NCBI GenBank assembly: GCA_012295275.1
Contig: CM022672.1
Coordinates: forward strand, 28,830,001 to 28,894,000
Length of the DNA: 64,000 nt
Reading direction: 5' to 3'
Source of the DNA: Chrysomallon squamiferum
Taxonomy: Eukaryota > Animalia > Mollusca
Positions within the stretch are counted from its first letter, which is position 1. Every line of letters starts with the position of its first letter. This document shows, piece after piece, positions 1,661 through 61,236 of the stretch. Under the pieces are notes generated by a model. The model had not been told where the DNA came from. It saw only the letters and a program-made list of their open reading frames with translations, and ran no database searches. Position numbers and translations under genes: made by a program.

Positions 1661-2020
1661 TCATGGATGATGATGGTGTTTCCTCTGATGGTATCTCAGT
1701 CCATAATAGGATGAATACTTCTTGTCACACAGCTTGCACTTGAGAATCCCTGCATGTCCCATCAGATGATAGTCCAGATGACTCTTGTCAGAAAACTTGC
1801 TAGTACACAAATGGCAGTGGAGATAATTTCCAGAGTGAACTCGCATGTGTCGTTCTAAATTTGTAGTTTTTATTGTCTGATAGCAACATAAACCACACTT
1901 GTGGATCAACCGCGAGCCCTTTTCTTTGGGGTGTTTCACAAACTCATTATTATCTCCCCAACTGTTCAAAGAATATCCTTCCCTTCCCAATGAACGAATC
2001 ATGGATTCAGTTCTGTAAGT
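1661..2020 (-). CDS. Gene A alternative terminal exon A-V5: three C2H2 zinc fingers
   Basis: Minus-strand acceptor tttttatcttctgcag|ACT TAC AGA, phase 0; 360 nt open to TGA; fingers CGLC..HMRVH, CHLC..HLMGH, CKLC..HQRKH. Confidence 0.85.
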   Translation of the reverse strand, partial: TYRTESMIRSLGREGYSLNSWGDNNEFVKHPKEKGSRLIHKCGLCCYQTIKTTNLERHMRVHSGNYLHCHLCTSKFSDKSHLDYHLMGHAGILKCKLCDKKYSSYYGLRYHQRKHHHHP

Positions 2021-2054
2021 CTGCAGAAGATAAAAATAAAAATGGATATTTGTT

Positions 2055-2533
2055 TTTCCTTTTTCAGTTATTTGTTTTCAAAGAATGTTGATATGTTTGT
2101 TTCAAATGTAATAAGTTCTGATTTTAACACAGTAAATCTGAGCTGATACTTAATTATTGTTGTGTAACCATACTAGCAGTAAGACACAACTGAAATGGGA
2201 CATCTCTAGTATTAATGAAAAATAAATATTTGAATAAGAACAGTTTAAATATATTATCAATTCATTCTTTTTTTATTTATTTATTATTATTATTTTTTAA
2301 GCACTTTGGATTATCTATAAAGTAAAATGACAGAGAACTTGTATCACAAAAACATTTGTTATTAATTTATTTTTATGCAGATCTCTACATTCATGACAAT
2401 AATCTGTGTTCACATTCATGATGGATTCTTTGTTACTTCAGTACAACTAAACAAATAATACCATAACATCCCACTGTCACAGCAGTGCACAATAAATTTC
2501 TGTGAAAACATGCAACAGTATTTTCTTAGAACG
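2055..2533. repeat. ~480-bp direct repeat, copy 2
   Basis: Near-identical to 733-1213; lies between exons A-V4 and A-V5. Confidence 0.9.
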
Positions 2534-2602
2534 TCACCAGTATCCACAATTATTACTTTACGAAGGAAAAAAATATTTTTTTCAAATTGGACATGTCAAA
2601 GA

Positions 2603-2920
2603 TTAATGCTTGTGGTCAAATTTCTTATGACGACGTAGACCTGTATAGGATGTGTATTTTTTCCCACATACAGGACACATGAGCATTCCAGCATGACCTT
2701 TCAAGTGATAGTGCAGAGAAGTTTGACTGTTAAATCGTGAAGGACACATATGACACTTGAGATAATTTCCAGAATGTGTGATCCTGTGTTTATCAAGACT
2801 TGTTGTGTAGAAAGTCTCGTAACTGCATTTGTCACATTTGTGCAATGTCTTCCTCTTTACTTTCTTCCTTTTGTCATCACTTGCTGGACCGTTATTATCA
2901 ATCCAAAACTTTGTGGACGT
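2603..2920 (-). CDS. Gene A alternative terminal exon A-V4: three C2H2 zinc fingers
   Basis: Acceptor ctgctttattccacag|ACG TCC, phase 0; 318 nt to TAA; CDKC..HRITH, CHMC..HLKGH, CPVC..HKKFDH. Confidence 0.85.
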   Translation of the reverse strand, partial: TSTKFWIDNNGPASDDKRKKVKRKTLHKCDKCSYETFYTTSLDKHRITHSGNYLKCHMCPSRFNSQTSLHYHLKGHAGMLMCPVCGKKYTSYTGLRRHKKFDHKH

Positions 2921-3650
2921 CTGTGGAATAAAGCAGAACATGAACCTGTAAATTAACAACTGTACCAAACAATACAACACATTATTTTAATAATGTTTCA
3001 AAAGAATCCATTCTCTACCATCAAATCTCTAATATGAATAAGATGGAAACAGAGCAGACATGATACAACTTTCACTGACTGTGCAAAATCCTGCAGTCTA
3101 ATCTTAACAGTCACTACAACGACATGTACATACACAGCTTGGAAATACAATTCAGCAAGTTTTTCACTTCATATTACATCACATATTCACATTATTTTAC
3201 ATACAACTGAAATAATTTTGAATGAAAATAACAACAACAATAATAATAGTAGTGGTAGAAAAAGAAGAAAACAAATCTTTTGTAATTATTTCCAAGACCT
3301 GTTTGAAATCTATGTTAACACAAGTGTTAAAATTTATGCATTATAAATTTCTTTATTTTAAAATGTACTCACATATATCAAAGATAAAATATAAATTCAA
3401 ATAATAATAATAAATAAATTCAAAAAATGAAAAAAAGAGATTAAAACAGAAGTTTTTAAAACATAAAACTTTTAACTTTCTTGCATTTCTGCACTTCTGA
3501 TATTTAACATTTTTTCTTCTTCTTTTGAACTTTTCTTATTTCTGAATCTAAGGAATTATTTCATGCAGTATTGCAATGATTATAATAAATAACAACCGTG
3601 GATAGATTTAGATTGTCACCTAAAAGATTACAAATTAATACTGTTATTAA

Positions 3651-3977
3651 TTAATGATGTGTTTTTTTATGGTACTGTAAACCAGCAATTGAAGTGTATT
3701 TCCTGCCACACACATTACACATCAACATTCCTGCATGTCCTTTCAGATGGTATACCAAGTGACTTTGATCAGAAAAACGTCTTGGACACAGGTGACACTG
3801 CAAATAATTTCCTGAATGTATTCGTTTATGACGTATGAAATTTGTTCTGTAATTGGTCCGATAGGAACACTGATCACAATTAAACACAACACCAACAATG
3901 CCAGAGCTAAGCATTTCACTGTGAACTGATGTATCCATGTGTCTGTATGTTTGCATGTCCGGCTGCAGTGATGAAGT
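3651..3977 (-). CDS. Gene A alternative terminal exon A-V3: three C2H2 zinc fingers
   Basis: Acceptor ttcttgtcttctgcag|ACT TCA, phase 0; 327 nt to TAA; CDQC..HKRIH, CHLC..HLKGH, CNVC..HKKTH. Confidence 0.85.
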   Translation of the reverse strand, partial: TSSLQPDMQTYRHMDTSVHSEMLSSGIVGVVFNCDQCSYRTNYRTNFIRHKRIHSGNYLQCHLCPRRFSDQSHLVYHLKGHAGMLMCNVCGRKYTSIAGLQYHKKTHH

Positions 3978-4498
3978 CTGCAGAAGACAAGAATGAGCTG
4001 TATGAGTAAATTTCAAATGTTAAGAAGAAAGATCATGTGCTGCCTGTCTGCTTAACTTTCTTAACCTTTAGCTACTAATAAATATTATTTCTGCATAAAT
4101 AACAAAAATACATGTTTCATATATGAATTCCTGAAAAATAATATTCAAAAATAATTAATAAATTGATTACAGTAGTTTAGAATTACTTAAAATTCATATT
4201 TATATAAGACATTCTAATTTGAAAAACACATAAAATATTTTTATATGAACTATATTTTGTTAGCAGAGAATATCAATGTAAAGGGTTTTCTGATGGAAAG
4301 TACAATGACAGCAAGACCAGCAAACTAATATAACCAGTAAGTTAAATTGCCTTTTCTGTTAGTTTTATATTCCATAGAAACATTTAGTGTAAATTTAATC
4401 TAACAGGATGTTTACATGAATATGTAATCTAAGTTTTTGTTTATAGTATTGCTATTTCAGTTACTTCTCAATGAACTGTTGGTGTCTGCACAACTTAC

Positions 4499-4732
4499 AA
4501 GTCATCACAACAAACAATAATACCATCCTTTTTTGTCACATTATGACTGAATTCTAAAAGTCATCACAACAAACAATAATACCATTCTTTTTGTCACATT
4601 ATGACTGAATTCTAAAAGTCATCACAACAAACAATAATACCTTTCTTTTTGTCACATTATGACTGAATTCTAAGTCATCACAACAAACAATAATACCGTT
4701 CTTTTTGTCCATTATGACTGAATTCTAAAAGT
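4499..4732. repeat. Minisatellite, ~4 copies of a 56-59 bp unit
   Basis: gtcatcacaacaaacaataatacc(n)ttttgtcacattatgactgaattctaaaa repeated head-to-tail four times. Confidence 0.9.
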
Positions 4733-5104
4733 GGGACGAACATTTTGTGATGTTAGCTGTCTTCACAAAGAACAAATGTTCATTAAATTCAAAACATTTA
4801 TTCAGTAACAACAAAGCTTTTGGTTTTATGCTTTACACGCAAAGAAATACACAAATTAACAAATTATATAAAGACAAAAATGAATTTCACTTTAATGAAA
4901 TTATACAAATATTTTTTTATCAGAGTTATAATTGACAACAATTTCCAAACAATGATTATAAATTAATATCAGCTTTAATTTAAAAGTCATTCCTAAATTC
5001 TGAGATATGCATATAAACTGATATAACAACAAAGACACAGGTTTCAAGTACTGTTTATATTCAAAAGTATTAAACTTAAATATTTCTAATGTTTCACAAT
5101 TTCA

Positions 5105-5530
5105 TTAGGATGACTCCTTCCTCCTGTGTGCATACTGACATGTTCGTTCATGTACATATTGACCATTTTGAGTTTTAAAGGGTTTAAAACAGAATCTACA
5201 GAGCAGCTCCCCTCTGTGAGCTTTTATATGATATCTTAACTTTCCTTTATCTGTGAAATGTCTGGGGCACAGATGACAGTGGAAGTAGTCACCAGTGTGA
5301 GTACGCTGATGCCTCTTGAAGTTGTAAGGGTGTGTTGTCTGATAGTTACAAACTGAGCATGTCATAACTTTGCCAGACATGGACCTGTATTTGCAGTAAT
5401 TTCTTAATGTGTTGGAATATTCCTGGAAATCACCTCGGTCCACATTATGTGACGATGGATAACTGGATTTGCACCAAGCATCTAAGGTAAGAGAGCCACT
5501 CTGAGATTCATCTTGTTTTATGTCAGAATC
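5105..5530 (-). CDS. Gene A alternative terminal exon A-V2: three zinc fingers (C2H2, C2H2, C2HC; 'GEL' subtype)
   Basis: Acceptor ttcattgttttctgcag|GAT TCT GAC, phase 0; 426 nt open to TAA (DSDIKQDESQ...CSVC..HQRTH, CHLC..HIKAH, CRFC..HERTC). Confidence 0.85.
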   Translation of the reverse strand, partial: DSDIKQDESQSGSLTLDAWCKSSYPSSHNVDRGDFQEYSNTLRNYCKYRSMSGKVMTCSVCNYQTTHPYNFKRHQRTHTGDYFHCHLCPRHFTDKGKLRYHIKAHRGELLCRFCFKPFKTQNGQYVHERTCQYAHRRKESS

Positions 5531-7947
5531 CTGCAGAAAACAATGAAAATATTGGTTTCCATTTTTTCTGTCTTATTCTTTCAAAAAAAAAAAAAAAGAA
5601 AGATTAAAGAAAAGAGAAAGAGAGAAAGCAAATACAGACTAACACCTCGGAACAAAATCCCTTAAAATAATCATATTTTGATTGTGTATTTATATAATGT
5701 ATACTGCAGATAAAAAAACATGTATTTATAATATTAATGTGAAAAAGGCTTGTCATTTATTTGCTTTTAGTCTATGTTGCAATTATTAAAAGAGAATCAA
5801 GATCAAAACTTTATATATTTAAAAAATACAACTAGATTGCTGCTCACTGCAGGCAAAACTGACCAGAAAACTGTATGTCACAAATTATTACAACAAAGAA
5901 AGAAAACATTGCAATGTATTTTTAAAACAACTGAAGAACAATTGATCTTAGTCAACAGATTAATTACTGTCTAATAGAGAAGCAGTCTGCCAGCCTTGGC
6001 AATAGCTGGTATGACCCACCATGCACGAACAGTTTTAAAATGTTAATTCTCAGGTAGACTTTTCTTTGTTTTTATGGTTCCTAAATGACTGCTACAAATA
6101 TATGTTTTTAATTAATATGACCAGAAAAACACCAAAGATTGAAAAAGTTACGTTACTTAAAGAGTTTGTGGCTTAGTTAATCTTATGAGGAGGTCTAAAC
6201 CTCAGGTTTAACTCAAAAGTTCAGATATCTGCTGTAACAAGTGGTAATTCAGTCTGCTCATAGCCACTTACATTTATTTATATGTTAATTTCATGATTTA
6301 CAGTATACAGATAATGAAACAAAATTTATAACAAATACAATATATTACACTGTACAGCTCATATTAAGTGAAAATACTGGTATTAAACGTGCAGTGTGTT
6401 AGTCACTCTATTCTTTTTATATCTATAGTCACTGGTAATTATCTCTATGCTTCAGGTATCAGTAGATTTATATCAGCTGAGTAGTGCTCACTAAAAATTT
6501 GTAATTTACTTTGCTAAAGAACCATTTTGAGACTTATTGGCTTTTACTTTCAAAATGTGTCAGTAACAATGACTGATTAACTTAGATAATCCATAGTTTT
6601 ATTATTTCATTACATTTCACTGCTGAACAATGTTTTATCTGAAACTAAAAGTACAGATATATGTAGTTGTGTGTTGCTTTCTTTCTTTCTTTTCATTTCT
6701 TTTTTTCTGTAACAGCCAACTTACAAAAGTAGACAAAAAAATATATAATTTTAAATCTTTGAAAAATCTGAAAGAGGAGTTGTGAACAGACCCACTTTAA
6801 TCTAAAGTAGGAAGTAGGCAAAACTGAACAGAAAAAATAGAATTCCGTAGTCTACCAAAATCAACATTTAATTAATTTTGATCTACTTTTTAAGAAAAAA
6901 AGAGTATGAAATTTGTACAGCCACTATAAAAGTAGTCTTGTTACCTGATAAGCATTTTCTTGCCAGCTACCCAGACATAAAGGTTAGCATGTCTGATCAG
7001 TTTGAATCTCATGCCTGTGTCAATAAATCATTCAAATTTATTTCTACTTTATTTTATTTTTATTTTTTTTTATAAGCAGAATTTCACTGTATCCATATTA
7101 TGTGCAACAAACCATTGGCTGGGTTTTCCAAAATTTGAAATGTTACAGAGAATATTTGTGATGCCCAACTTGACCTACAGTTCAAGTATTATTCAAATAC
7201 TATAAAAATAAAAAAAATAATTTAAAACAAACAACCAAAAAAACATTTGTATGAGGAAGTCTTATTCCTGCATTTTTATAATATAGCTGCTTGTTTCCGG
7301 TAATTATTTTACAATAAAAAAAAATTCACCAATCAGTACTGTAATAATTTTCTAATTATTTTAACTAAAACTATATACAATTAGAAGATAATATTACGGT
7401 TAGGATAAATGTACAGATAGGCAGTCATATCAGTGATGTGAGACCAGAAAATTGATATCCAATGCAGACAATATTCCTAAATACCTATAACATTAATAAT
7501 CAAATCTTATTTTTATTATGTAAGTTGTATATTTTCACCAAACATTTAATTTCATTTTAATATGTCTCTAAAATGAATAATACACTCTCCATAATTACCG
7601 AAGAGAAAAGAAAATGTTTAATAATATTAATATATAAGACAGACTTAAGAAATATCGCACAAATAAAACATTAACACACCATTGATAAATTAAAGATAGT
7701 TATCAGTCAAAAAATAAATGCCTTTCCGACAACCTTCTTACAAACTAGATACTTATAACCCTGAAAATACTAACAAAGATTTCAAAATTAATTAAGAAAT
7801 TTATGTTAATGTAAAGAACTATTGTCACAAATTGACAGGCATTGTATGACTGGTGTATTTTAAAAATACTGATTTTTTTATTTATCTTTATTCAAATTTT
7901 AGACCAACAAAATAAGGCCTTATGTAAATAAAATACAGTTGGTTTAC

Positions 7948-8151
7948 CTACAATAGGTTGACGGAGGGTTTGTGACAATGCTTGCCCTTCATGAACAAAA
8001 GTTTGTCTCGCTGAATTATCCGACCCTTGCACTTCAATGCAGAATATTCATGACATTTCCAGTAGATAGTGGTGCCCAGTTTTGTGGGCATTACCTTGTC
8101 CCTTACATAACCAAATCCATCGAAAACCAGTTTCATAGTCTTTCTGTCAGT
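7948..8151 (-). CDS. Gene A alternative terminal exon A-V1: FLYWCH-type zinc finger
   Basis: Acceptor ttatttattttcgcag|ACT GAC AGA, phase 0; 204 nt; LVFDGFGY..IYWKC..(x6)CKGR..KHCH fits the FLYWCH pattern. Confidence 0.8.
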   Translation of the reverse strand, partial: TDRKTMKLVFDGFGYVRDKVMPTKLGTTIYWKCHEYSALKCKGRIIQRDKLLFMKGKHCHKPSVNLL

Positions 8152-9834
8152 CTGCGAAAATAAATAAGTTATAAAGAAAAAAGATTCACACAGTTTTGAA
8201 TAAACAAACTTTATTGACATTTATTACAATAATTTATACAAAATTAGTTTTCATCACAACTTCCAGATAAATAACAAAAACCAGTATTTTCCACCATTTT
8301 TATTAAAATTCTGTTTACAAAATTGGACATCCAATTAAGAATCAAGATCCATTTCTGATGTTAAAATCAGATTTAAATTCCAATTACTTATGATCAGCTG
8401 ACAACACCTTTGCAATTTTTTCAATCTTTACTAAATAAATTCTGATGTAACCTCAGATGCAAACTCTTGGATTTCAGGATGTATTTAAATCTGAATCACA
8501 TTAAGTGTATATATATATATATATATATAAAATTAATTTTAAGGCTTTCCTAATGTATGTGAAAGATACACTTCATGAATTGCATTAAGAATATGAACTT
8601 AAGAAAGCTTAGAAATCATTAAATTTCATGCAACTATTTGTATTAACCATAAATGAAATGAAGTTCAAGAATACAATTTCCATGACTAGTTTTATTATAA
8701 ATTTTGGATTGGAATGTCATGCTTATTTGCACATCTTTTCAGTTTCTCTGATTCTCTTTTTGGCACAACTAAGTTTTTTTTAAAATTATTTGTCTTTTGG
8801 TACTCTAGAAAATAATAATCATAAATAACACTGATAAAAATATCTGATTAACAAAACACCAGATATTGAATGCTGTTCTAAGTTCATTTAAAAGCAGTAC
8901 AAATCAGGTGCCAAGTGAGCTGTTGTTTGTAAGATACTTCAGAATTGAATAGGTACAAGTATAATACGTTCCTGCTGTTGGAATAATCATTAGCATCATT
9001 AATGGGTTTTTTAAATCTTTTCTATACTTGAAATAAGTTCAAATGTAAATGCTTACCTGTTATAAACTGAAAAGAGTTTTACTTAAATCTAAGTTGATTA
9101 GATAAACAAGCCTGACCCTTTCCAACAATTCAAGCCTTTTTTTGGACACTAGTCTCATAATTACTGTATTTAATTCACAGCATATGTAATATGCACATAT
9201 CAAGTAATTATCAAATTATTATAATTCTGAAAAGAAATCCCGTATCAATCAGTTTTACAAACTCGTTAATATTATTTACCATTTCCAAAAGGAATAACAA
9301 ACAAACAAACAAACAAACAAACAAATCAGTAAAGAATGAAAAATAATACAATCCTAATTTTGAAATTAAGCTGGTATTTTTTCCAATAGGCTGAAATACA
9401 TTTCTGAGGCTTCGAATTTTTGAATGCTAAAGCAATTTATAAATAAATGATAATTACATTGATAAATAAAATATAAAAACACTTTAATCTTTAATCATTC
9501 ATACAATGTTTTGAAACAGAACGTTTAATGAGTATAAAAGTCAGGTAATATATGTATTTCAAAAAATATACATGCAATACAGACAACAGGAAAAAAACAA
9601 GTTAATGTAAAAACTAAATAAAACTTTAATAATATTAGTCTAATAAATATATACTTTAAGTAATCTAACACTTAATATTCAAAAACTTTAGATACTTTAA
9701 AGTATTTTCCACATTAATTATCAGTGGCTGATAAGTCAGTATAAAAATAAATTATTATTATTATTATTATTTTTATCTTGAAGTATCTGAAATTATTTCT
9801 TCCAAACAGTTCAAAACAACTCTCTCACTGGTTA

Positions 9835-9885
9835 TAATGTGTATTCAAGGATGTCTGTTGGTGATCAGTCACATGACATTTACAG
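9835..9885. repeat. Left arm of ~51-bp inverted repeat (pairs with 13888-13941)
   Basis: Reverse complement ctgtaaatgtcatgtgactgatcaccaacagacatccttgaatacacatta matches 13888-13941 with 3 mismatches and one 3-bp indel. Confidence 0.8.
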
Positions 9886-11230
9886 TGGAGTGCAAATACG
9901 TATGCACATATTAACGAGCATAATTAGTATACATGCATGTAAAATTTTGTGCTTGTCAATTTCGTAATCTTTATGATAGGATACATAAACACAGGCTCCA
10001 CCTCAGTGAACATGGTGTACAAAGTGTTGATTTAAGGGTATGTAGAGTGTTGATGTCTTCATGTATTTTGGTGTACATAGTGTTTCTGATCAATATACTG
10101 TACTTAGAGAACATACCACAAAAGTAACTGATTTAACTGACTTGTTTGATGCAATTTACTCAAAGGACTACTATAACTATCTCCTAATGTTTATAAAATG
10201 TTAAATAATGGTCATATTTTTTTCTTTTCTTATCAGGCTTCATAATACACAATGTACCAGTGTTATTATTACATAGAGAAACAAAACACCTTCCACGATA
10301 TTTTGAAGTACATTAAACAGAAGCATCGTATGAAACAACATCTTTGATATGTCACCCTGCAGGACATTTCACAAAGCATTCGCTTCCTCAAAATCAAAGA
10401 AAAAACACTGCAGTCACCTTTAGAGGCTATCCCTGTTAAATGTCATAAAACTGATGCAGAACCCTGTAACTCCACATCAAACACAAATCAATAAAACACA
10501 TGCATACGCTCAGACTGATCAACTACATGTATTTGTTGACAATCAACTCCTATCTGAGGAGGAGGTAGATATTTGAAAACAAATATGTGCACATTTACCC
10601 ACTTTCCTGTCTGAAATTAGCAAGTCAGGACTTTTAAAAGAATGGAACTGCATTATCCAGTTGATAGGTCAGTCTTGTTTTTCCATGAATAATCTTGCAT
10701 ATCTGCTGTTTCTGGAGGTTATTAGGTGGTTTTCCCAAGAGAATACATGTGCAACTACGTACTGCCATAAAGTTAACTATATTTGAAAATTGGCCACTAT
10801 TCTACAACAAGCATCTGACATGGATCTGGAAGATGGAACATTCAGTGCAGCAGCATCTTCAATTGCGGGCTGCTGTCAAGTATTGCTATCAACTACGTGC
10901 AAGTGAATAAGAAAACCTGAAAGAAATCAGGTTTTAAAAAAAAGCATGTTTTGACAAATATCTGGCATGGACTGGAAAAAGTGGAAAATGGCACTGTTTC
11001 TCAGTAGTATTCAGACATCTTTGTACAAACAGGCACCTGCATCAATGATCTTCGACAAGAAATGTGTGCATCAATTTCAGTAACATCATACCTACTTTTG
11101 AATGGTTAAAAACAGACAATGCAGTGAAACAGTTGTTGATCTTGACATGCAAGACAACTTTTTTTGCTTGGTTGGATTTGACGAAAATATGGTTGCACAA
11201 AGCCAATGCCAGTCAAATATCTAGAGCAAG

Positions 11231-11790
11231 TTTATTAAATAGAGGAGTCCACTATGGTTCAAACGTAAAAGTGCCCCTAACAGGCAGCACATTGTACAAG
11301 GTCCTTAGTCTTGAAAATCTTAAATCTCAAGTTACTCAATTTGAGACAAAATTCTTGGGATAAGCAGAGCCAGAATGTTCTGATGAATCTAAAGTTTTTA
11401 TGCAGCATGGGGTAGACAATGATATCAACACTGTAGCTACAACTGTTTCAAAATTATTACCTGCCTTTTATCCAGCTCTTACATTGTTTGAAGATGGATG
11501 CTCCTCTCTTAACATAACGGGAAACCTGTCTGCATTGTAATTGCTGATGGAAGTCTGCACAATGAGAAAGGCAATGATGTCATGGGAATAGAAATTAAAT
11601 ATCATAATCCTCAAAATATTTACACACTATCGGGTATGTACATGGTCCAAAGGTATTATGTACCCCAGCTTCTGTTGGAAATGAAGATTTTAAGAGTAAA
11701 GAAACTTCTTTTTGTAAAATTCACACCAGAAATGTCAACAGTTCTATGAGTATCATTTTCAGAATAACTTTGGCAAAAATATGGTCACAA
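11231..11790 (+). pseudogene. Decayed YqaJ/lambda-exonuclease-like PD-(D/E)XK nuclease, probably transposon-derived
   Basis: Manual translation across stops and frameshifts gives IK*RSPLWFKR..LTGSTLY..MQHGVDND..ADG..IEIKY..RYYVPQLLLEM..LLFV, i.e. the QRSxxW, LTGS, MxHG, (S)PDG, EIK and YYxQ motif order of YqaJ. Confidence 0.7.
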
Positions 11791-12619
11791 TGAAATAAAT
11801 GTATGCAATTACTGAACTCTGTACATCATTCATAAGCATTGTAACAAAGTTGCCTCCCATGAGAATTAATGTTAGATACTAAGCTATTTGGTTTTATACA
11901 TATTACACATGTATTCTATTTATATTTTCCACGAACAAGTATTACATAAGTAACTGACTTATATTTTCCGAGGATTTTACATGCACACTTCAAAGGTTAA
12001 AGTGTATCCTGTAAAATGTTTAACTGAAGCCTGAGAGGATGAAAGTGGACAACTCAGTTATGGATGGACAGCTCTATTCATATATACAAAAATATATATT
12101 CACCCAGAATATATATCATTACACACTGATATACATTCATTTTATTTTACTTTATTTATCCTTTAAACATTTAAGTGATCACCATTTTGATTAATCTGGA
12201 AAAACAGAAAGAAAACTCCAAAGCATTCGTCAATCACACCCGTATCACAGCCAGCTAAAGGAACACTTGTAGTGAAGTCTGAACAACATCATTTTAACAA
12301 ATCAAAGATTCCGTCACATATTAGAGAAGGAATAGATTGTTGTAGATGAGATACTAATAATCACAGTTGGAACATTTATTGTGTTTTAAGACCAACAAAC
12401 ATATATCTCAGACAAGTTAGAAATAGCTCAAAATTAGTTTTTAAAAAAGCTCTACAAGTGGTTTCTTTTAAGTAAAAGGGAAAGACGACTAAATTTTTAC
12501 AAGATAACAACACCATTTCTATATACAAAAAAAATAATATATAATAATAAGAAATAAATAAATGAAACACTATGATCTGAATGACATATTTATTTTGATA
12601 TAGCCTGACATTTATTTTT

Positions 12620-13281
12620 TATGTTTTGTAATTCCAGATCAATTTCTGACCACAATGACATCTGATTTTTGGATCACCATGCATAATTTTAACATGGCCT
12701 TTTTAAATGGCACACAGTTTTGCAAAAGGGGTCCTGGCATGAAAATGTCTTCTTTCCAGTGCACTGTTTAACATGTCTTGCCAAATTACAATTTTTATTG
12801 AAAGACTTTTTGCATACTTTGCATATGTGAGGCTGCTATGTTATATGAGTTGACTGATGCACCTGGAACAAATCACGCTAGTGATATCCTTTGTTGCAGA
12901 TATTGCAGGTAAACTGGTATTTTTTGGAATGAGTTTTATAATGTAGTTTTAGACCCCACCTGGATTTATACTTGCCACCAAATTCTTCACAAATGAAGTT
13001 GTGGGCACTAACTCTATGACTTCTCATTTGTTCTGCTGTCTCAGACATTTATGAACTACGATGTATCAGCTCCTGGCTACTGTGTTTCAATAGGATGTGA
13101 TGTTTGAAATTGGAGTTTACTGCAGTTTTGTATCCACAATGACAGCTGTAAAATTTAACAGGTTGCCAGATTTCTTTAACTGGTGGAGGCTTTAAAGCTG
13201 TCGATGTGGAAAATCCTAGATGCTCTGATTCATCCAGGAAACTCCCCAGAAGTCCACCTGTCTCTGATATATTCATGTCAT
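12620..13281 (-). pseudogene. Decayed multi-zinc-finger coding segment
   Basis: Acceptor ttttatattacag| at 13281, ATG at 13276; frame continues past in-frame stops: FICEEF..GLKLHYKTH, FTCNICNKGYH*..H..H, CKVCKKSF..LARHVKQC, then a frameshift to HGDPKIRCHCG. Confidence 0.75.
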
Positions 13282-13887
13282 CTGTAATATAAAATTAAAC
13301 TTTGTTACTATGTGAATGAAACCTATTGAGAATTGGACAAGTCTGCATAAAATTTAAATAAAATTCATTATAAAATTTTAATTGTCAGAATAGTTTTTAC
13401 TGAAGATAATGCCTGCACTTAATTATATAATGTAATGTCTTGCAAAAGTAACCTTACTTTAAACTAAAACAGCAACAAAAAAGTAAAACATTGATAAACA
13501 GTACTCCATACACCAATCACCAACACTCCATATGCAGCAATATTCACAATTTTTTGTAATAACTAACTTGCATATATTGGCTTAATGTTAATATACAAGT
13601 ATTTCAGCTAACTCTGTGTATTATTTAACACAATAATTTTTATTATTTGATTGGTAACGACCTTTTCATAACAGTAACTGTCATCGATTTCACTTAATTA
13701 TTATGTACCATTCGGTGCTTATGCTTTTTGTCAACAGGCCTTACTTATTTCATGCTGTATATTATATACTGCAATATAAGTTTAGAAGCAAGAAGTAGAT
13801 TATAGGTATTTATTAAGAAATTGATTAATTTCAAACTTAAAACAACAAAAATTTCACCTACCAGATGAAGGGAAATGAGCTCCTTTG

Positions 13888-13941
13888 CTGTAAATGTCAT
13901 GTGATTGACCACCAACAGTTGACATCCTTGAGTACACATTA
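13888..13941. repeat. Right arm of ~51-bp inverted repeat (pairs with 9835-9885)
   Basis: ctgtaaatgtcatgtgattgaccaccaacagttgacatccttgagtacacatta. Confidence 0.8.
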
Positions 13942-16900: not shown

Positions 16901-17951
16901 AAATAACACAAATTATTCAGAAGAAATATATATAGAACTTTTTTCTACAATCCACTTGATGACACCACAGAGATGGCTTCAAAGAAGCATGAAATAAGAA
17001 TATGTTTTGTCATACCATTTTTTACTGGCCTCCTGTATCAATACTACTATCACTAAGCTAGACATACAGATAATGTAATAAAGCCATTGTTTCATTGTTC
17101 AACAGAACAAATCCGTTAAAATAAATAAATAAAAATATCCCAGGTAATAAATACTTTAAATAATCAAATCAACATAATGTAAGCCAATAACTGTATATTT
17201 TATTATCAGACATGTGAAAAATGATAATCAGATATTGAAACAATCCAACAGAACATTTTAACACAAAATGAAGAGATACACTGTTATGAATTTCATTATC
17301 AAGGAAAATCATCACTGATGAATATATATTTAAAAATAATACAGTATTTTCTGACATTTAGGTTCAGAGAAAACATATAAAGAAAATAAATTATCGAAAC
17401 CTTTCCTTACAATCTTACTATACCTGACGTTTGGGACATTAAAAAAAAATGTATTACTACTGAATGCATTTTTAGTCTTTCATGTAGTAAATAAACATTA
17501 ACTATTCTTGTGTTTCAAAGTACTCATAAACAAAAATGCATGCTTCATTTTACTTCCTTCAGAGATTTAGGGAATAAAAAATAATAATCATAATGTTTTT
17601 ATGACACCATTATTTTATCTGAACACCATGATATGCAAATTTATTATTCCAAGTTCTGATAAAACATTTTAACCTGTAATATTAAAACTTTCTAAACAGT
17701 TTCTTGTCCACTAATCCAAAGAGTTTAAAAGAAAAAAAAATAGACTTCTGTGAAATTCAAAGATCAAAATTATTTCAGACCAGCAAACGTTTAAAGTACA
17801 AATAATCCAGTCTTTTTAACAATATTTTTTCATATGCTATGTTAGTTTCATAACTTTACAAAACATTTTCTAGCTTTATTTTAAATCTTGCTGTTTAAAG
17901 ATGGTGTCATGAAAACATTAGATATAAAAACCCTGAAAATTATCACTATAC

Positions 17952-18322
17952 CTGTGCAAACTTGGGCTTGCTGGTTGTTGGTTGTGTCTGTGTGTTCCAA
18001 GTCGAGTCTGAAACATTGGAGTCAGGAACACCAAAAGTTACTTGTAGCTGAGCAAGATCAGAATTGTCCCCACCATTGTCTGGACTGTCAAGCAATACAA
18101 TGTCATTAACCTCTTTTTTAATTTCAATGTTTTCTGGCAAAGGTAGACGAATGCTTTCAGATGTGAGAGAAATGGATTGATTGTCACTGTGAACTGAGTC
18201 ACTAGATGATGGCTTTGTTTCTGTCTCACAAACACTTTTTAAAGTGTCACTATCTGCTTCAGATATAGGATTAATCCTCGTTGCTGCATTAATAAGAGAA
18301 TCTAAATCACCATCTGTCTTAT
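17952..18322 (-). CDS. Gene A constant coding exon 2 (Ser/acidic linker), last common exon
   Basis: Acceptor ttttgatttcag|AT (phase 1, completes G+AT=Asp); donor CAG|GTATAG phase 0; 371 nt; homologous to 26970-27385 (SESIRLP.PE, ND.V.LDSP). Confidence 0.85.
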
Positions 18323-20114
18323 CTGAAATCAAAAAGATGCAAAACTTATTATTGCATTAAATGTTTATCCCATTATTGCTAGAATAAACTAAAAAACATT
18401 GCTTTGCCATGTAGAGATGTCACAATTGTAGAAAAACAGCAGCACCCATATAAAATTGGAAAAAGTACAACATAAAATAAAAAAATGCAGCAAACATTTA
18501 GCAGGTACTGACACCACAATGCACTCCTGTCAAAAGAAAAAAAACTGCCTTTCCTTAACTCACTAGAGATACATTCCTGCTCAAAGGAACATGTAAAGTG
18601 TATCACAAAAAATAGCAGTATTTCCTTTTTTCCAAAGCATTGCTCGTTATTATTTTGATGAAGTCATGCCATGATTTCCTGTGCATTGTAAAATGCATGT
18701 GATACAAGAAGGCTGAAATATGCTCTCATCTGAAAAAGCATAGATTCTGTCTTTAAACTGAACAATTTTTTTTTTTATCTTCCCTATCTTATCATGAAAA
18801 AAAATTGATCTTTGATGAATCATATGTTTTGAAAAGAGCAATTTCTACACTTTCTAATAAACACTAAGATTATTCTGATAGCATTATGATTTAAAAAGAT
18901 GTTCCCTTGTTCATCAGAAATGATCTACACTAAGCAAATGGATAGAAATGAGTTATGGAGGAAACTGTAAGTGACAATTTCATTTTATTCTGGTGATTAA
19001 ATTGTGTACTTTTTTATAAAAGCTTTTCTTATGATTCAAAAAAAGTATTAGCTGAAGGAAATGAACAGAGTTGGCATATATTGACAGTTGTCAGATGTCA
19101 AACCAAATAATTCACATGTGAAACAGGAAAATGCTTAAAACTTGGTAACACCCCTGACAAATTCAAAGTGAAATATACTTAGCTTTATAATAATGTTTCT
19201 CTATTAGAATAAGCTGGTGAAGTGAACTATATCTTGCCTTGCAGATAAGTTAAGTCATTTGACACCCACCTTTCCAGGCAATATATCCAACTATGTTTAT
19301 ATTTGAAGTATATTCCGTAACATATCTTTATACAGCTTTTTCATTGTAAAGAAAATGATGTTTGAATCATAAAAAAGGGAGTATAATTATACATTTTATT
19401 ACATTTTAAAATACTGAGAGAAAATGCCATCCAATTTTAAGACCATTTGCGATAAACTGGTAACTTAGATCTCAGCATGGGATAACTCTGAAAAGAAATA
19501 AGCATTATCTTATGTTAATTGCTTGAAGTCTGGATGTTTTCAAGTTTTGTGTATAATATGAGCTGCCAAAAAGCATTTTCTCAAAACAAAGGGGTTTTTT
19601 TTTGTTGTTTTGACTTTGAGGTTTTAAAAATGTTTTTTTTTTCACTGAATAACTGGATAACATTATCAGCTGTAACTTTTGAATAAAGATAGAAACACCA
19701 ATTTTTCTTCTTTTAGTGAAAAGAACTCCAACACTGGAAAACAAGTACAGTTGTTGTTCTAGATGTATTTTTGGGTGCCAGTTCTTAACTTAGATTATTT
19801 TTTATTTTTTTATCACAAAAGTCATCTTTCAGTTTTAGTTGTTTCTTTTTAAGTATTTGTTCTGTAAATTTGCAAAGAAAATAAAAATATTATAATGCCT
19901 GTGTAAATTATAACAATTGTATGTAACACCAAAGACCTGGTAAAGAAATTAAATTAACTTGGTTATACAAACTCTGCATATCCATTTATATCTATTTTTA
20001 CTGATTATACCTATAGAAATAAACACAATTATTAAATTAAGCTTTAAATATTTTGCATTAAATTAAAATCATAGTAATCTAAACATCTTATTTTTTAATA
20101 CACTTAAGTTTCAC

Positions 20115-20859
20115 CTTTTTTCACTAAAGGCCCGTCATCTGACTTGGTTAAATTTCGCTTTTGACTTTTTATGACATCATTACTTTGGTTGTCTTTAACA
20201 AACGGGCCTGTATCTACATTATCAAGAACATCATCAGTTTGATTTGTAGAAATCTGGATTGAATGCCTGGGCTGAATTTCCATAATCTCCTGGTTATCAT
20301 GTCCTGAGGCATGTGAATCATAAGAATCTGAATGTTTTTCTGCCATCTGATTTGGTGCTCCTGCTGCAAATGAGGTTCTCTTGTTTGAAGACATCAATGG
20401 TGAATGACCTGATATATTATTATGAGGTTGTGAGCTAGGTGACTTAGAAAAACCAGAGGTTAAATGATGTGAGTTAGCTGTCCTTTGTCTGAAAGATGAT
20501 TGTAGAACTGTATGATGTGATGACCGTGGTTCAGGACTATGTCGAAGATCTATTGTTACCTCCCTTGAGGATGCAATTCCTGCTGCCTTGATATTGGTAC
20601 TGTCTCTAACTACATCTCTCTTCTGAGGTAATCGTTTCATAGTTTTGAACGCTTTTACACAGTAACTCTCACTGATGACATCACCAGTGTTGTGAACCAT
20701 CTCACTCAAAACATAGCGTTCTTTTTTGTAATTGTCTATTTCTAAAGAAAGGTAACCACTCAGTTCCACTGCCTGTTCAAACTCTATATAGTCTCGACAG
20801 AATTTCTGCATTGCTTCCACAAACTTGGTGAAGAACTGGACAGAATATTGTTTATCCAT
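20115..20859 (-). CDS. Gene A constant coding exon 1: conserved 78-aa N-terminal domain plus disordered region
   Basis: ATG at 20859 after acceptor ttttttcag| (exon start 20891); donor AAAAAAG|GTGAAA phase 1; first 78 aa are 75/78 identical to gene B. Confidence 0.9.
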
Positions 20860-22514
20860 TTTTCAATAAATTGGTCAGCTCAAAGAAAATGCTGAAAAAA
20901 AATAAATTAGTTAACAACTATAATAAATAAAATACATTTTCACTACTATTTTTCTCTACCTTTTTATAAATATATAAAATTTCAACAATTTTATTTTAAG
21001 AAATACCATGTTATCATTTGGTAAGCAAATGTAAGTTCACTATTCTGTTTAGTTTCTTTTGAGTTTATGCAATAAATATGTTAGACCTGATTATTATTTA
21101 TGTCATAAGACTTAAAAAAAAAAAAAAAAAAAATTTCAATAAAGTATAAATTTATAAAACAACATTCATATCTAAGACCACAGTTTGGATTTGAATATCT
21201 GTATTTAATGAAAACAGTTTAGAATGCAGTTAAAAATTATTTTCAGTTTACTCATACTGTTATAACTCTGTAGTTAAATAAACAATGATATTAATAAATA
21301 AATTGAAAGTCCAACCCAAAATATTTTTATTTTACTTATTCAAATTTCACTTTAACTTGATAGGTTTATTCATTGCAGGTGGAAGATTAAATGATAAATA
21401 TCTTTTGCATTTGGAAATACAACATTTCAAAATAGGAAAAAACACTGGTATTTAAGGGAAAAAATAAACTGAAAAATGCATCCTTTCTAATAATATCTGT
21501 TCATAAGCTACCTACCGTATTCTTTTATTTACTGACATGCCTACTTTAATTATAATTTTGTTGTTGCTGTTTTTAACATATCTATAAAAATTAATATAAA
21601 AAAAGAAAAACTTAAGACCTCTGGACATTTTATTTATATATGTTGCTGCCAACTTCACTGGCTAAAAGTCTTAATTAATTTTATTTCAAGATCACGTTCC
21701 ACAGAAAATCAAGGCCAAGTGGAACGGTCATGGTTATATACATTTAATTATACTACTTCAATATAATAATAATAATATGATGATGATGATAAAAATAATA
21801 ATTAATTATTAAGGAAACAAACAAACACATACAACACCAGTCCGATTTAGAATCTTTATCTAATTATTAAGTTTAATTTGATCCACAGGAAGCCACAGAA
21901 CAAATCTCTGATGATGGATGCCATTTATGATTTCCCCATTTGTAACCCAAAAAATCAAAATTTTTCAATGTTGTATATCCTTAACTTTGTAACTATTCAA
22001 ATTTTCCACTCTCAAGGAATAAAATAAAATAAAATGTTCCAGCAAAATATGACTGGATCAGTTAAAACCCATTTGGTAACTTTACACAAAATGACCCTAC
22101 CACTATATTACGGCATTAAATTGATTAATGTTCAAAATCTGAAGTAAATTTGCACGTGCATATGTATAAAAATAAGCCTTTTAAGTTTTACTATTAGCAC
22201 TCAAATTTTTTTTTTTTTACTGAAATAATAATAATAATAATAATAGTAATAATAATAATAATAATAAAGAGTAGAATATAAATAATACATATTTTTTTTT
22301 AATTTCTTTTCACATTCATCAATTAATCATACATAACACTACAGTTAATTCAATAATAATGTCAATGATATTCATATTGACATTGCTCAAGTCTACCGGA
22401 ATGGATTCTTTATTTTTGTCGCAACGTAAAGCTCTCATTTACAATTTGTTATATTTAGAAAGCATAATAAGCATAGATAATTAATCTAACAACTGCACAA
22501 CAGATTACACATAC

Positions 22515-22597
22515 CTAAATTTGACGTTTGACAAAAACAATACCCATCTAGAAGAAAAACATATCAGACAGACGTGCGTCTCCTTCGTCGTTTTATA
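22515..22597 (-). promoter_or_regulatory. Candidate gene A core promoter and 5' non-coding exon
   Basis: Minus-strand TATAAAA at 22597-22591 in a locally CpG-rich patch, then a strong donor AG|GTATGT at 22515; exon end gtcaaacgtcaaatttag resembles gene B's gtcaacgttttaaattag. Confidence 0.4.
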
Positions 22598-22952
22598 AAG
22601 TTACCTCCCCTTTTGTTATCGACAAATCGTTCCTTACCAGCAACCTACGTATACTATTTACGTGAGAGAAGTCATCGTTGATTATAAATGTTTTATTAAA
22701 CTTCTACAACCTAAAGATAACAGGTTAAATATGTAATCACTTATTTATTTATTTTCATTATTTTCTCTTTTCCACATCTCTTTTTCGTTTTCCTCTTTTG
22801 CCTTGCATTATTTTTAATTGTTTTTTGATTGATTTAATGAAATGATTTATGATTCATTGATTGTTATCAGAATTTTGGATATTGTATTTCTTTTTCTTTT
22901 TCTTTCTTTCTTTCCTTCTTTCTGTTTTATGAATTTTATATATTTATTTATT

Positions 22953-22972
22953 AATTATTATTATTATTACTA

Positions 22973-23025
<53 letters not shown>
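22953..23025. repeat. (TAT)n microsatellite
   Basis: Long tattattat run. Confidence 0.9.
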
Positions 23026-23026
<1 letters not shown>

Positions 23027-25447
23027 GTATTTTTTGCTTTTTAATTATTTTTTAACTTGTGTGTATTTCTAGATAGATTTGGTTTTCGAAATTATTGATT
23101 TACGGTGCCTGAACCTTCCTCTGCTACGTGTTCAAACTCAGTCATACTAAACAGCATCCACCAGTATGGCTGCATCCAGTTTGTTTTACATGATTTCCGT
23201 CAATTTGGTGACATCTGTATGAGAAATAAGCCAGATTTTATTTATTGGATCAGAAAGAAAAGTACTTCCATAATAGCCAATTTAGAACATGGTCGGGGAT
23301 GGGGTTGAAGCCTTCTAGATTAATAATAATAATAATAATAAAAAGCGAGTATAAGCATACTAACAATAATATTAAACCGATGATGATGATGATGATGATG
23401 ATGATAGTAATAATAATATGAAGAATAAAAATAAAGAATCTTATGATGCTAAAAATGTAGGTACTTTATTTCTCTTGTAGGTTAAGTTATTTGCAAGAAT
23501 AATATTTAATATATGTTATGTATTAATATATATTATATCACTACTTAATAACAGTGTCTAAAACTTTTGCCTTAATATTATATTTATTCATTTATAATTT
23601 GTCAACATAAATGTTTGATGTTGTTTGAAATGTTAGATATAAGTTAGTATTTTCTAACAATTGCTGTGTAATTATATATTAATATGCATGTAGACAAGCA
23701 GACGTGTTGTATTTCTTTCTTTTTTTAATAAATGAATTCATTGTTATTAATATTTTTTGCCTAACAATAGTAAATATTTAAACCTTAGATTAACTTATAT
23801 GATGATAGGGATAATAACAATATGATAATAAAGGTATAAACTGGGATGTTCCATTTTAGTGTAATATAAAAAAATTAAAAAAATGTATTGGTAATTCCGA
23901 AATCTGATTAAAACACAGAGAAAGGTGTATCATTTTTTTGTTCTTTGTTTGAAAAATTATTTCTGACATCGTCACCCTCACTTACTGTCATGGATTTTCG
24001 TTTGTGATTTGTTTTTGATGTATGGATCACAGAAATAATTAATAACGAAATTTTGGAAAATCTGACTCTACTCAAGGAAAATTCATATTTAATTGGGGTT
24101 TTGTTTTATTATTTTAACAATTTCCCACCATTTTGAAGATCTTAAGTGGCACCATCAACCTACCGAATCTGGGGTGGGGAAGTATCAGAAGAAAAAAAAA
24201 AGAGAAATAAAGTCACAACTTTTAATAGAAAACAATGTACTGGGAAATGAAAGAAACATTTTTGTGAATGGTCTTCATTTTCAATATTGGTAGTTTAAAC
24301 TGATGTTCCAACGTTTTTATCGTGAAGCTAATTCCAGCAACTAGCTACTTAGCTCAGTATATTCTGACAGTGTACCGTATTTATGAAATATTCAGGTTCT
24401 GGAAATGTAGAATAACAAATACATTTCTTGGTGAATGGCATACCTTCGGAAAATGCTAACGCCATAACTGCGATACCATTCAAACATCTGAGCCCCTTCT
24501 TTCAGATAAGGTTACCATACAATCAATTAAAATATCACATCAGTATTAATAGAAAGTGTTCAGTGGCGCCCAGGGCTTGTGCCAAACTTGGAATACCCTA
24601 GACAAGCCACTGTCTACATCCCCTTACGGTTTGCACCATTTAATTGTCATATTATGGATTTTTAAACTACCTCCAAATGCCATTTTTGCCATGTATAATT
24701 ATTATTATATATGTATTTTGTTTCAAACTAGATGATATCTGAGTAGGTTTTATCTTTGTTACTTGAGATATTAAAATGTATCAAAATACATCATCAATGT
24801 TTTGGTTTTTGGTGATTGCAAGTGTTAATTTCTAATTCAAAGTGACTTATATATATATACTATACCCTCATTGTTCGGATTTACTATCTGAAAATTGAAA
24901 CTGGGAATCGAATAACTACAGTTTTTTAACTTAACAATGGCATATTTAATAATAATAATAATAATAATAATTATAATTTTTATTTATTTATTTATTTGTA
25001 TGTTTATTTATTTATTGTAAAAATGAAAGAAACTTTAATTATCCAAGGATAAAGGTATGTTTTTATTTTTCTTTGCTGAAAGTTAATCATTTCTCTCATC
25101 ATGCTGATTTTCACTCGTCTAAGATGAAAAATATCAAGAACACCCACAAGTCATTCATTATAAAATGTTTTTTGGCACATAGCTCAAGGGCAGATAACTC
25201 TCGAAATAAATTTTGGAAAGTTACAACCCTGAGAACCCAACGTCAAGGGTCGCAGATAATGTTAATCAACCAAACAGCTGAAAAAACGATAATTTAAAAG
25301 CTGGGTAATCCGTGTAAGTATATATATATATATATATATATTTGTATTTAAAAAATTAGTAACTGAATAAACATTTAAAAATATTAATAGATATTTATAT
25401 CACTGATGCGGTATATTGGCGTAAAATGTTTCCAATGTTTAAAAATA

Positions 25448-25761
25448 AAAATGGCGGATGTCTTGCACAAGAATGCAGTTGTTAATAACTATTAATATTA
25501 GATAACTTTCTGTATTTATATATCTAGACATTTAAAATAATTGTTTATACAAACTGGTAGATATTACTATTATTTTTCTATTCATACAAAATACCGTTAC
25601 AAAATCAGTTCTTCGGTATTTGGAACAAAGAAGCCGCCATTTTGCAATATTTATTCTAACAAAGAATTCAGGTGTCCTTGACCTAAATAGTGGTAGACTG
25701 TTTTGCTAAAGTTTGTTAAATAATGTCAACGTTTTAAATTAGTTATACATTAACAAATCAG
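25448..25761 (+). promoter_or_regulatory. Candidate gene B promoter and 5' non-coding exon with two YY1-like motifs
   Basis: AAAATGGCGG at 25448-25457 and GCCGCCATTTTG at 25633-25644; strong donor CAG|GTAAGC at 25761, with an acceptor at 26031 before the ATG. Confidence 0.5.
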
Positions 25762-26048
25762 GTAAGCCTTATTTTCTAAAACATTTCGCAATAAAATAAA
25801 CTTTTAGACATTACTGTGAAGAAAATACATTTTATTTATTTATTTATTATTATTTTTTTAAAGTCAAATATATTCATTTTAACTTTTCCAATTTGATGTA
25901 ATTTTTCTAAAAAATATTTCCAGTAAAATACTTAAATGTTTTAATGTGTTGTGCATATATCATTATATGCTGTTCGTTATCTTAAAAACATTTTATTAAT
26001 TTTTTAATTTAATTGTATTATCCATTGGTAGGTATACATTGAAGCATA

Positions 26049-26679
26049 ATGGATAAACAATATTCTATCCAGTTTTTCACAAAATTTGTGGAAGCAATGC
26101 AGAAATTCTGTCGAGACTATCTGGAATTTGAACAGGCAGTTGAACTAAGTGGTTATCTTTCTTTAGAAATAGATAATTATAAGAAAGAAAGATACATTCT
26201 GAGTGAGATGGTTCACAACACTGGTGATGTCATTAGTGAGAGTTACTGTGTAAAAGCCTTCAAAACTATGAAACGATTACCTGTTAGAAACAATTCAGAC
26301 ACAGTGCTCAGAGATAACACAAATATCAGAAGATCATCTGGTAAAGAAGTGACAGTAGATATTCGAGATAGTCCTGAACATCAGGTTTCCTCATACAATT
26401 CACATCATGGTTATTCTCCAACATCACAGCGTCATAATGTGTTGGGGAGGCGAGCACCAGCATTTGCTGCTGGTAGTGCATCTCAGGTTACTGATGTACA
26501 AAATCGTACATTAAATGTTGCAATGCAGATTCAGCCAAGACAATCACAGTTTTCAAGTTCAGGAATGACAACTGATGACACAGTGCTAGTAACAGTTGGA
26601 GATAGTAAAATGGGTTCTGGTGTGAGAGGGCAGAAAAGAAACAATTCACAATCAGAAGAATCACCTCTTCATAAAAAAG
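26049..26679 (+). CDS. Gene B constant coding exon 1: conserved 78-aa N-terminal domain plus disordered region
   Basis: ATG at 26049; donor AAAAAAG|GTATGT phase 1 at the same protein position (PLxKK|) as gene A. Confidence 0.9.
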
Positions 26680-26969
26680 GTATGTTTAATATAAGTTGCA
26701 CGTGTGTAAATGTGTCCAGAAAAAACCCATGAAAATTTACTTGGATTGTTAAACATACAGGTCAAAATACATGTTAAAGTTATCTCCTGTCTGTTTTAAC
26801 ATTTTCTGCCTTTATTACAATGAAAACATTAAAGGAATATTTAATCTCTGATTTTTGATAATTTATTTTATGTCATTAAATTTAATTCGGTAAATTTCCC
26901 TAAGTTTTTACCTAGTGAAACTTTAAATGGGATTTTCTCATATTTTTTTTTTTTTTAATTTACTTTCAG

Positions 26970-27385
26970 ACAAACTAGATACAGATATTGAATCTTTATA
27001 CAGTGCAGCTACTAGTATTGTGTCTACTTCTGAATCTGATATTACAAAGAACAGTTATTCAGCTGTGACAAAATCTAACATATCACAAAATGATACAATG
27101 CCAAATTTCCATGAATCACAATGTGCAGAACAAAAAGAGTCATCTGAAAGCATACGTTTACCAATCCCAGAAACTGTGACAGTTAAAGAAGAAAATGATG
27201 TTGTGTTCCTGGATAGTCCATATGAAGGCTCAAATAATGACTTTGATTCTTCTCAGATGGAAAGTTCTTTTGTGATGAATGAAAGTTCTCATGGTTCACA
27301 AGGTAACTCAGGTGGAAACCCAGATGATCTAGAAACACATTCTCAAACAGCTGGAAAAAACAAAGCTCATGTCAAGGTATTTCAG
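26970..27385 (+). CDS. Gene B constant coding exon 2 (Ser/acidic linker), last common exon
   Basis: Acceptor tttactttcag|AC (phase 1, G+AC=Asp); phase-0 donors AAG|GTATTT (27376) and CAG|GTACAG (27385); homologous to gene A exon 2. Confidence 0.85.
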
Positions 27386-61128: not shown

Positions 61129-61236
61129 ATACAAATGTGGATCGACTAGGAGTGACACATGTGTACGAGAGAGATGTTGAAACAGTTTACATACCTCCAT
61201 CTTTAGAAGAAGGCTCTCCAGAACCAGAGACTACAG
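61129..61236 (+). CDS. Cassette B-V18 exon b
   Basis: Acceptor tttttaattcag|AT, donor ACA G|GTAGGT; 108 nt, phase 1 to phase 1, open (TNVDRLGVTHVYERDVETVYIPPSLEEGSPEPETT). Confidence 0.75.

Follow-up and report, generated by a model that had tools for sequence, protein, structure and literature searches.

Two Tramtrack-group BTB genes of Drosophila, mod(mdg4) and lola, are the closest described examples of a design in which one protein scaffold is joined to many alternative ends. In the accounts cited here, mod(mdg4) has no fewer than 30 isoforms, the majority with a FLYWCH domain at the end (PMC11426971, PMC4387717), and lola has 20 isoforms, 17 of them with different C2H2 ends (PMC11426971). 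The same accounts report the Tramtrack-type BTB domain in arthropods only and give the ends of the two genes as either C2H2 or FLYWCH (PMC11426971, PMC4387717, PMC4208683). The locus described here lies in the genome of the gastropod Chrysomallon squamiferum, in a stretch of 64,000 nucleotides (nt) of contig CM022672.1 (assembly GCA_012295275.1, positions 28,830,001 to 28,894,000), hereafter the window, whose first letter is position 1. It contains two genes arranged head to head, A on the minus strand and B on the plus strand, each with two constant exons and an array of terminal exons, or cassettes. The preferred reading, held with a probability of about 0.85, is that gene A joins one two-exon front end to alternative last exons with different predicted DNA-binding modules and so probably produces a set of transcription factors with one front domain in common, and that gene B likely does the same. 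The pattern itself is confirmed as real, RNA-supported and conserved.

As in mod(mdg4), shared 5' exons are spliced to one out of many last exons, which differ in their domains of the DNA-binding type, and FLYWCH domains are found among these ends, here in the A cassette at 8151 and in three ends of the orthologue of gene A in the neomphaline vent snail Gigantopelta aegis. Unlike mod(mdg4), which has cassettes on both strands and uses trans-splicing, the snail genes belong to a gastropod, carry no BTB domain and keep every cassette on the strand of its own constant region. With lola they share a long array of alternative C2H2 last exons placed behind shared exons and a low-complexity linker. 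They differ from it in an unrelated front domain, in their three-finger ends and in the repetition of the design in at least 12 clustered paralogues that mix C2H2, FLYWCH, HTH-psq, BEN and DUF3504 ends. Two features of the lola and mod(mdg4) design are present: common exons are spliced to alternative last exons (three of five acceptors in RNA, 14 ends in the G. aegis orthologue), and these exons encode C2H2, FLYWCH or HTH modules according to Pfam, both in the window cassettes and in the G. aegis ends. The snail design works like lola and mod(mdg4) without belonging to their group and likely evolved separately, on an unnamed domain. The one-scaffold, many-ends design described for arthropod Tramtrack-group BTB genes is found here on an unrelated domain in snails, and the similar choice of end domains, multiplied over a gene cluster, makes this a clear case of convergence in transcription factor diversification.

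A more distant comparison is offered by genes with DUF3504, a domain derived from Crypton recombinases; KIAA1958, as described in the cited account, produces two isoforms whose DUF3504 domains differ and lie on separate exons (PMC3212892). The likeness to KIAA1958 and other Crypton-derived genes (ZMYM, QRICH1) lies in the DUF3504 carried by most abalone homologues found and by one end of the G. aegis orthologue of gene B. A tblastn search with this G. aegis end at E 0.01 gave no match in the window, and no DUF3504 cassette was found there.

Gene A and its last-exon cassettes

Constant coding exon 1 of gene A (20115..20891, minus strand) has a predicted acceptor at 20891, an ATG at 20859 and a phase-1 donor after 20115 (PLVKK G/GT, where the slash marks the exon end). 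Residues 1–75, all encoded by this exon, make up a conserved, unnamed front domain. Constant exon 2 (17952..18322, minus strand) ends FAQ/GT in a phase-0 donor that is common to all A cassettes, and an in-frame stop lies one codon past this donor, inside the intron. The RNA evidence consists of assembled contigs from four RNA runs of one study, aligned to positions 1300–21299, with 15 of 16 joints seen. The intron 18322–20115 is spliced in all four runs, and the joints of gene A match the predicted GT-AG sites exactly. Non-canonical joints with sides of 20–22 nt were put down to AT-rich repeat noise and not counted; the window is AT-rich animal DNA with 24–35% GC per 2 kb.

Five intact cassettes follow on the minus strand, with acceptors at 8151, 5530, 3977, 2920 and 2020. 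Each acceptor is the best pyrimidine-rich YAG from which the frame remains open as far as the domain; all five are in phase 0. Cassette 1 (7948..8151, 67 residues) is a FLYWCH exon (Pfam PF04500, E 1.8e-14). The joint from 17952 to 8151 is present in two of the four RNA runs, with a short side of 27 nt, and 50 of the 67 residues are identical in G. aegis isoform X12. The remaining four cassettes encode triple C2H2 ends. Cassette 2 (5105..5530, 141 residues) is joined to 17952 in one of the four runs (short side 28 nt) and is identical to isoform X2 at 93 of 141 residues. Cassette 3 (3651..3977, 108 residues; 77 of 108 identical in isoform X7) is joined in all four runs, and a single RNA contig of 1329 nt covers exon 1, exon 2 and this cassette with zero mismatches. 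Cassette 4 (2603..2920, 105 residues) and cassette 5 (1661..2020, 119 residues) correspond to isoforms X8 (66 of 105 identical) and X4 (80 of 119), respectively. Alternative splicing of gene A is seen in RNA for three of the five cassettes and would extend to the other two.

The preliminary description of this DNA, made from its letters alone, had placed intact phase-0 terminal exons at the same five acceptors, which are reconfirmed here, and had expected junctions from 17952 to each of them. Those to 3977, 8151 and 5530 are borne out. Instead of A transcripts that end at the in-frame stop past 17952 or splice elsewhere, the outcome that it had named as fatal, there are RNA joints to three of the five acceptors and G. 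aegis isoforms for all five.

Gene B and the common phase

Constant coding exon 1 of gene B (26032..26679, plus strand) starts its reading frame at ATG 26049 and ends in a phase-1 donor (PLHKK G/); its first 234 coding nt are 91% identical to those of gene A. Constant exon 2 (26970..27385, plus strand) ends in a phase-0 donor (VFQ/). As the preliminary description had it, the two genes have two constant exons each with the same phases, phase 1 and then phase 0, at 20115 and 17952 in A and at 26679 and 27385 in B. Exon 2 of B contains two in-frame GT donors, 27376 and 27385, which are 9 nt apart and both in phase 0.

The B array on the plus strand holds 16 intact single-exon C2H2 cassettes between 33598 and 56423, all phase 0, with acceptors at 33598, 34560, 36060, 39362, 40895, 41954, 42815, 43839, 46693, 48124, 49422, 50170, 51184, 51972, 54058 and 55974. 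A further copy at 52883–53205 has a good acceptor and a frameshift ahead of its first finger, and is either a pseudo-cassette or an assembly indel. The last cassette is made of three exons (60497–60695, 61129–61236 and 61532–62358) that encode an acidic stretch and seven C2H2 fingers. It starts in phase 0 and is the counterpart of isoform X1 of the G. aegis gene LOC121383256 (73% identity over 283 residues). The exon at 61532 was considered as an exception to the common phase and rejected, being the third exon of a cassette whose start at 60497 is in phase 0. Gene B likely makes a panel of isoforms with alternative ends, like gene A.

All 22 intact cassettes (five in A and 17 in B, that is, 16 single-exon cassettes and the three-exon one) are in phase 0, the count already reported. 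Since many cassettes are tandem copies and not independent, the common phase reflects descent and selection rather than 22 coin tosses. The reported layout also holds: all left-hand cassettes are on the minus strand and all right-hand ones on the plus strand, so that each array is directed away from its own constant region and from the other gene.

Orthologues and history of the pair

The orthologue of gene A is G. aegis LOC121384031, whose RefSeq isoforms X1–X14 share 384 residues and diverge at the point that corresponds to the 17952 donor. All five A cassettes have one-to-one partners among these isoforms, 63–75% identical over their length, and the partner ends begin at the matching A acceptor or no more than two residues from it. 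The four C2H2 pairs are grouped with bootstrap values of 98–100. The orthologue of gene B is LOC121383256, for which three isoforms were seen: one corresponds to the 60497 cassette (73%), one ends in DUF3504 and one has no Pfam match. The G. aegis genes thus resemble the window in their constant regions (62% identity for A and 70% for B), in five A ends and in the seven-finger B end. They differ in carrying generic similarity names, in nine more ends on A, which have no A-side partner in the window, and in the ends of B, three of which were seen where the window has 17.

The constant regions of A and B are 47% identical to each other. Because this is below the identity of either gene to its orthologue, the duplication that gave rise to the pair is old, and a recent duplication was rejected. 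A and B form a clade in a careful tree of 16 rows, built without abalone rows and without four G. aegis rows on long branches (support 83/92), and in a larger tree built in quick mode (92). Judging by these identities and trees, A and B are probably sisters that were duplicated before the split from G. aegis. The head-to-head duplication proposed in the preliminary description, with twin isoform generators as its product, is supported with refinements: the sister grouping fits a single A/B duplication, but this duplication is old, and the genes belong to a large family rather than to a lone pair.

The history of the cassettes is less simple. In a tree that left out 43 of 103 ends for want of a three-finger pattern, 13 of the 16 three-finger cores on the B side fall together with five ends that belong to the A orthologue in G. 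aegis (89/91 and 92/83, unstarred and not one-to-one). This grouping would fit duplication of a whole unit, constant region plus array, followed by reciprocal loss; an inversion by which cassettes came to lie behind B; or shared use of the cassettes in trans. The pair, with its conserved A ends and lineage-expanded B array, offers a direct test of array growth, cassette trading and exon choice.

The front domain

The first 78 residues of gene A are 97–99% identical to those of several G. aegis genes, while the linker behind them drifts. Up to an E value of 1, Pfam gives no match for exon 1 of A or B, and no Pfam family covers the front domain of the homologues. No relative of known structure was found by sequence; a profile search of solved structures matched low-complexity linkers only. 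In an AlphaFold2 model based on 38 sequences (pLDDT 73.5, pTM 0.61), residues 3–24 form a helix, followed by strands at 30–41 and 45–56 and a short one at 61–63. The predicted fold is one long helix plus a β-hairpin or meander. Fold searches with two models gave no clear match (best Foldseek E values of 0.044 and 0.79, best VIA Z scores of 3.7 and 4.2), which shows neither a new nor a different fold. In the ESM Atlas, the domain from the window retrieves unnamed bacterial clusters at 0.93 by features, which were not accepted as relatives, and an abalone homologue has no usable match.

The BTB fold is mainly helical, and in the group of lola and mod(mdg4) this front domain assembles into dimers or higher multimers. 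Membership in the BTB group of lola and mod(mdg4) was rejected for the front domain, which matches no Pfam family and no solved structure and is predicted to contain a helix and strands within about 70 residues.

Because the front domain is nearly invariant beside a fast-changing linker, a shared interaction surface is suggested. On the model of BTB in lola and mod(mdg4), there is an even chance that it acts as a protein-interaction module through which isoforms and paralogues combine. A dimer prediction gave a score of 0.01 (mark 0.32); with the fold uncertain and the alignment unused, it is evidence neither for nor against dimerisation.

A gastropod gene family

The A/B pair are members of a gastropod family in which the front domain is fused to C2H2, FLYWCH, HTH-psq, BEN, CENP-B-type or DUF3504 ends. 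In G. aegis, 84 proteins fall into 18 distinct constant starts, all located on one contig of 91.7 Mb, and 12 of the 18 have between 2 and 19 different ends that part at one point. G. aegis thus has at least 18 paralogues there, and a later profile search and look-ups added three further loci. According to Pfam, the G. aegis ends are of the C2H2, FLYWCH, HTH-psq, BEN, DUF3504 and CENP-B/Tc5 types. At least a third paralogue appears to be expressed in C. squamiferum as well, since RNA contigs in all four runs have a loose end at 20626, where they match the A front domain and then run on into sequence of neither gene, and of four variant sites close by, three differ from the letters of B.

A profile search of 1.84 billion representatives returned 235 matches at E 0.001, many of them through linker or DUF3504 columns; a profile of the domain alone matched 38 of 118 new rows. 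The homologues that could be named among 20 looked up come from Haliotis, Pomacea, Batillaria, Lottia, Littorina, Babylonia and Gigantopelta. All are gastropods, in place of the arthropod distribution of the Tramtrack-type BTB genes. Bivalves, cephalopods and annelids are absent from the named ones of these 20 matches, which does not bound the range of the family. In Haliotis rubra, Babylonia areolata and Littorina saxatilis, paired RefSeq isoforms have 257–360 front residues in common and then run into different ends. Close to the start of one Lottia gigantea protein (P0181, 1766 residues, named Vertnin) stands a remote version of the front domain; the protein also has transposase-type HTH matches, another end derived from a mobile element.

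Isoforms of the family already exist in public data as automatic RefSeq models. Full-text literature searches, with subscription journals outside their coverage, found no paper on the front-domain family, and the strings 'splic' and 'isoform' do not occur in the main texts, as distinct from the supplements, of two vent-snail genome papers (PMC7895826, PMC7736800). The head-to-head pair is by itself a modest finding; its main value is the undescribed gastropod family behind it, and counts made at the level of genes overlook a large part of the molluscan transcription factor repertoire. A bolder proposal, with the odds somewhat against it, is that gastropods, and perhaps lophotrochozoans, have their own counterpart of the Tramtrack BTB system. 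This would comprise an unnamed multimerising domain, a chromosomal cluster of about twenty genes that act as splice generators with the same kinds of DNA-binding ends, and well over 100 transcription factor isoforms able to co-assemble, with A and B having traded cassettes or sharing them.

Choice and origin of the ends

By its sequence, the donor at 17952 is compatible in frame with any cassette. Each A stop codon is followed by AATAAA or ATTAAA, signals that are common in AT-rich DNA. Because every cassette has its own stop and such a signal nearby, the choice of the end would most likely be an ordinary competition in cis between splicing and polyadenylation along the co-oriented array. New cassettes would arise by tandem duplication, as the cassette tree suggests, and would remain usable because their phase is kept.

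In Dscam1-type arrays, a single docking site next to the shared exon base-pairs with selectors, one of which precedes every variable exon. A scan for such docking and selector pairing, covering the first 3 kb of the intron and 400 nt per cassette with ungapped pairing, found the best 14-mer pairing with two of five upstream regions in A and two of 18 in B, within the range of the controls. A strong pseudo-donor that pairs with U1 (TSA-like), placed in the last common intron, is a feature of the Tramtrack-group multi-isoform genes. The last intron of A contains a U1-type site at 9059 that matches 10 of 11 positions; this is close to chance, being reached in 6% of 200 simulations. Gene B has no U1-type site at 9 or more of 11 positions. 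At 9057–9070 (minus strand), 0.9 kb ahead of the first cassette, a strong donor-like site is immediately preceded by an AG and a pyrimidine run. It may serve in recursive splicing or mark a microexon of 10 nt, or be a near-chance occurrence.

Alternative explanations

Several observations weigh against the reading of A and B as generators of transcription factor panels. The RNA support comes from assembled contigs of one study without a DNA run as control, and the joints to 8151 and 5530, with short sides below 30 nt, fall into a less safe class. For 2920 and 2020, where the preliminary description had also expected junctions, no joint is present among the 15 of 16 listed, and RNA contigs run unspliced through both acceptors; this cover may be pre-mRNA, a long 3' untranslated region (UTR) or DNA. 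The G. aegis isoforms are automatic models, and LOC121383256 shows just three ends, none matching the 16 single-exon cassettes of B. The remote homologues in Caenogastropoda reach just E ~1e-5 to 1e-9 with a profile that includes low-complexity columns, and 40–48 bits with the domain alone. As to proof of function, DNA binding by the ends is predicted from domain labels, and a multimerising role of the front domain is argued by analogy. The gaps at 2920 and 2020, together with the missing one-to-one counterparts of the B cassettes and the decayed and frameshifted copies at 13281 and 52883, could mean that only some cassettes are live, while these two distal ones and a large part of the B array would be relics, present in RNA only as intron or as a long 3' UTR. 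This is unlikely: the two A exons have open frames, intact fingers, short branches in the finger region and 63–67% identity to annotated G. aegis ends, and the 16 B cassettes are fully open despite deep mutual divergence.

Trans-splicing, by which the isoforms would be made in part as in mod(mdg4) and lola, with A and B able to use each other's cassettes, is about equally improbable. Cross joins would be in frame, both donors being phase 0, and the grouping of 13 B-side cores with ends of the A orthologue, the unspliced passage through 2920 and 2020 and the U1-type site at 9059 would all suit it; lola and mod(mdg4), in the account cited, trans-splice to each other (PMC4387717). But that grouping is not one-to-one and also fits whole-unit duplication with reciprocal loss, or inversion, and the U1-type site is near chance and has no equivalent in B. 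Among G. aegis groups with several isoforms no end is common to two constant regions, although automatic models would not reveal trans joins. Neither array contains a cassette on the opposite strand, and the RNA contigs do not separate cis from trans. Since each cassette is co-oriented with its own constant region and downstream of it, cis splicing suffices. The head-to-head layout is known from this one assembly alone, and an assembly artefact between near-identical paralogues might have produced it or placed the right-hand cassettes behind B. The 234-nt block of 91% identity, the expressed third paralogue close to A and the resemblance of B-side cassettes to ends of the A orthologue point that way. 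Beyond this block, however, self-comparison shows A and B to be too diverged to collapse, the two orthologues share a single G. aegis contig, and the order of the B side is coherent because its last cassette matches isoform X1 of LOC121383256. One further run contains 0.89 of the sampled words of 17900–27400, although this run is possibly the source itself. Such an artefact is very improbable, and alternative last exons spliced in cis from each gene's own constant region remain the preferred account.

The last intron, the left flank and the spacer

A decayed multi-C2H2 exon with several in-frame stops, absent from the preliminary description, lies in the last intron of gene A at 12700..13281 (minus strand, left end approximate). 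It retains the remains of five to six C2H2 fingers in a single frame, its sole visible acceptor is apparently phase 1, and an RNA contig crosses this acceptor unspliced. Its best match is the seven-finger end of the G. aegis B orthologue (38%), and it resembles the seven-finger exon of the last B cassette. This match is a hint that the ancestral unit may have carried the seven-finger type of cassette on both sides. Much of the intron is covered by RNA contigs. It also contains broken reading frames at about 10400–11750 (plus strand) and 15930–16260 (minus strand) that resemble old mobile-element or gene remnants; three scanned pieces of these frames gave no Pfam match.

A tandem repeat of about 58 nt, in four to five copies, occupies 4471–4758 between the cassettes at 5530 and 3977. 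The 0.5-kb non-coding block upstream of acceptor 2020 (2055–2534) is copied at 733–1215 with 91% identity, at a distance of 1.32 kb onward in the array. This duplicate ends just before the would-be acceptor position, with no cassette after it, and positions 1–1660 contain no cassette. In JGI metagenome contigs, neither an exact 41-nt pattern from the left flank nor the front domain has a match. Nine of 14 orthologous ends have no A-side partner, which suggests that the A array extends leftward past the edge of the window; this case is weaker because five of the nine may sit on the B side.

The spacer between the divergent coding starts (20892..26031) separates ATGs that are 5.2 kb apart and contains two CpG-richer patches, near 22400–22900 and 25150–25650. 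Judged by promoter motifs, these patches likely represent one promoter per gene. In the patch upstream of B, two identical YY1-type 10-mers face each other at 25448 (plus strand) and 25643 (minus strand).

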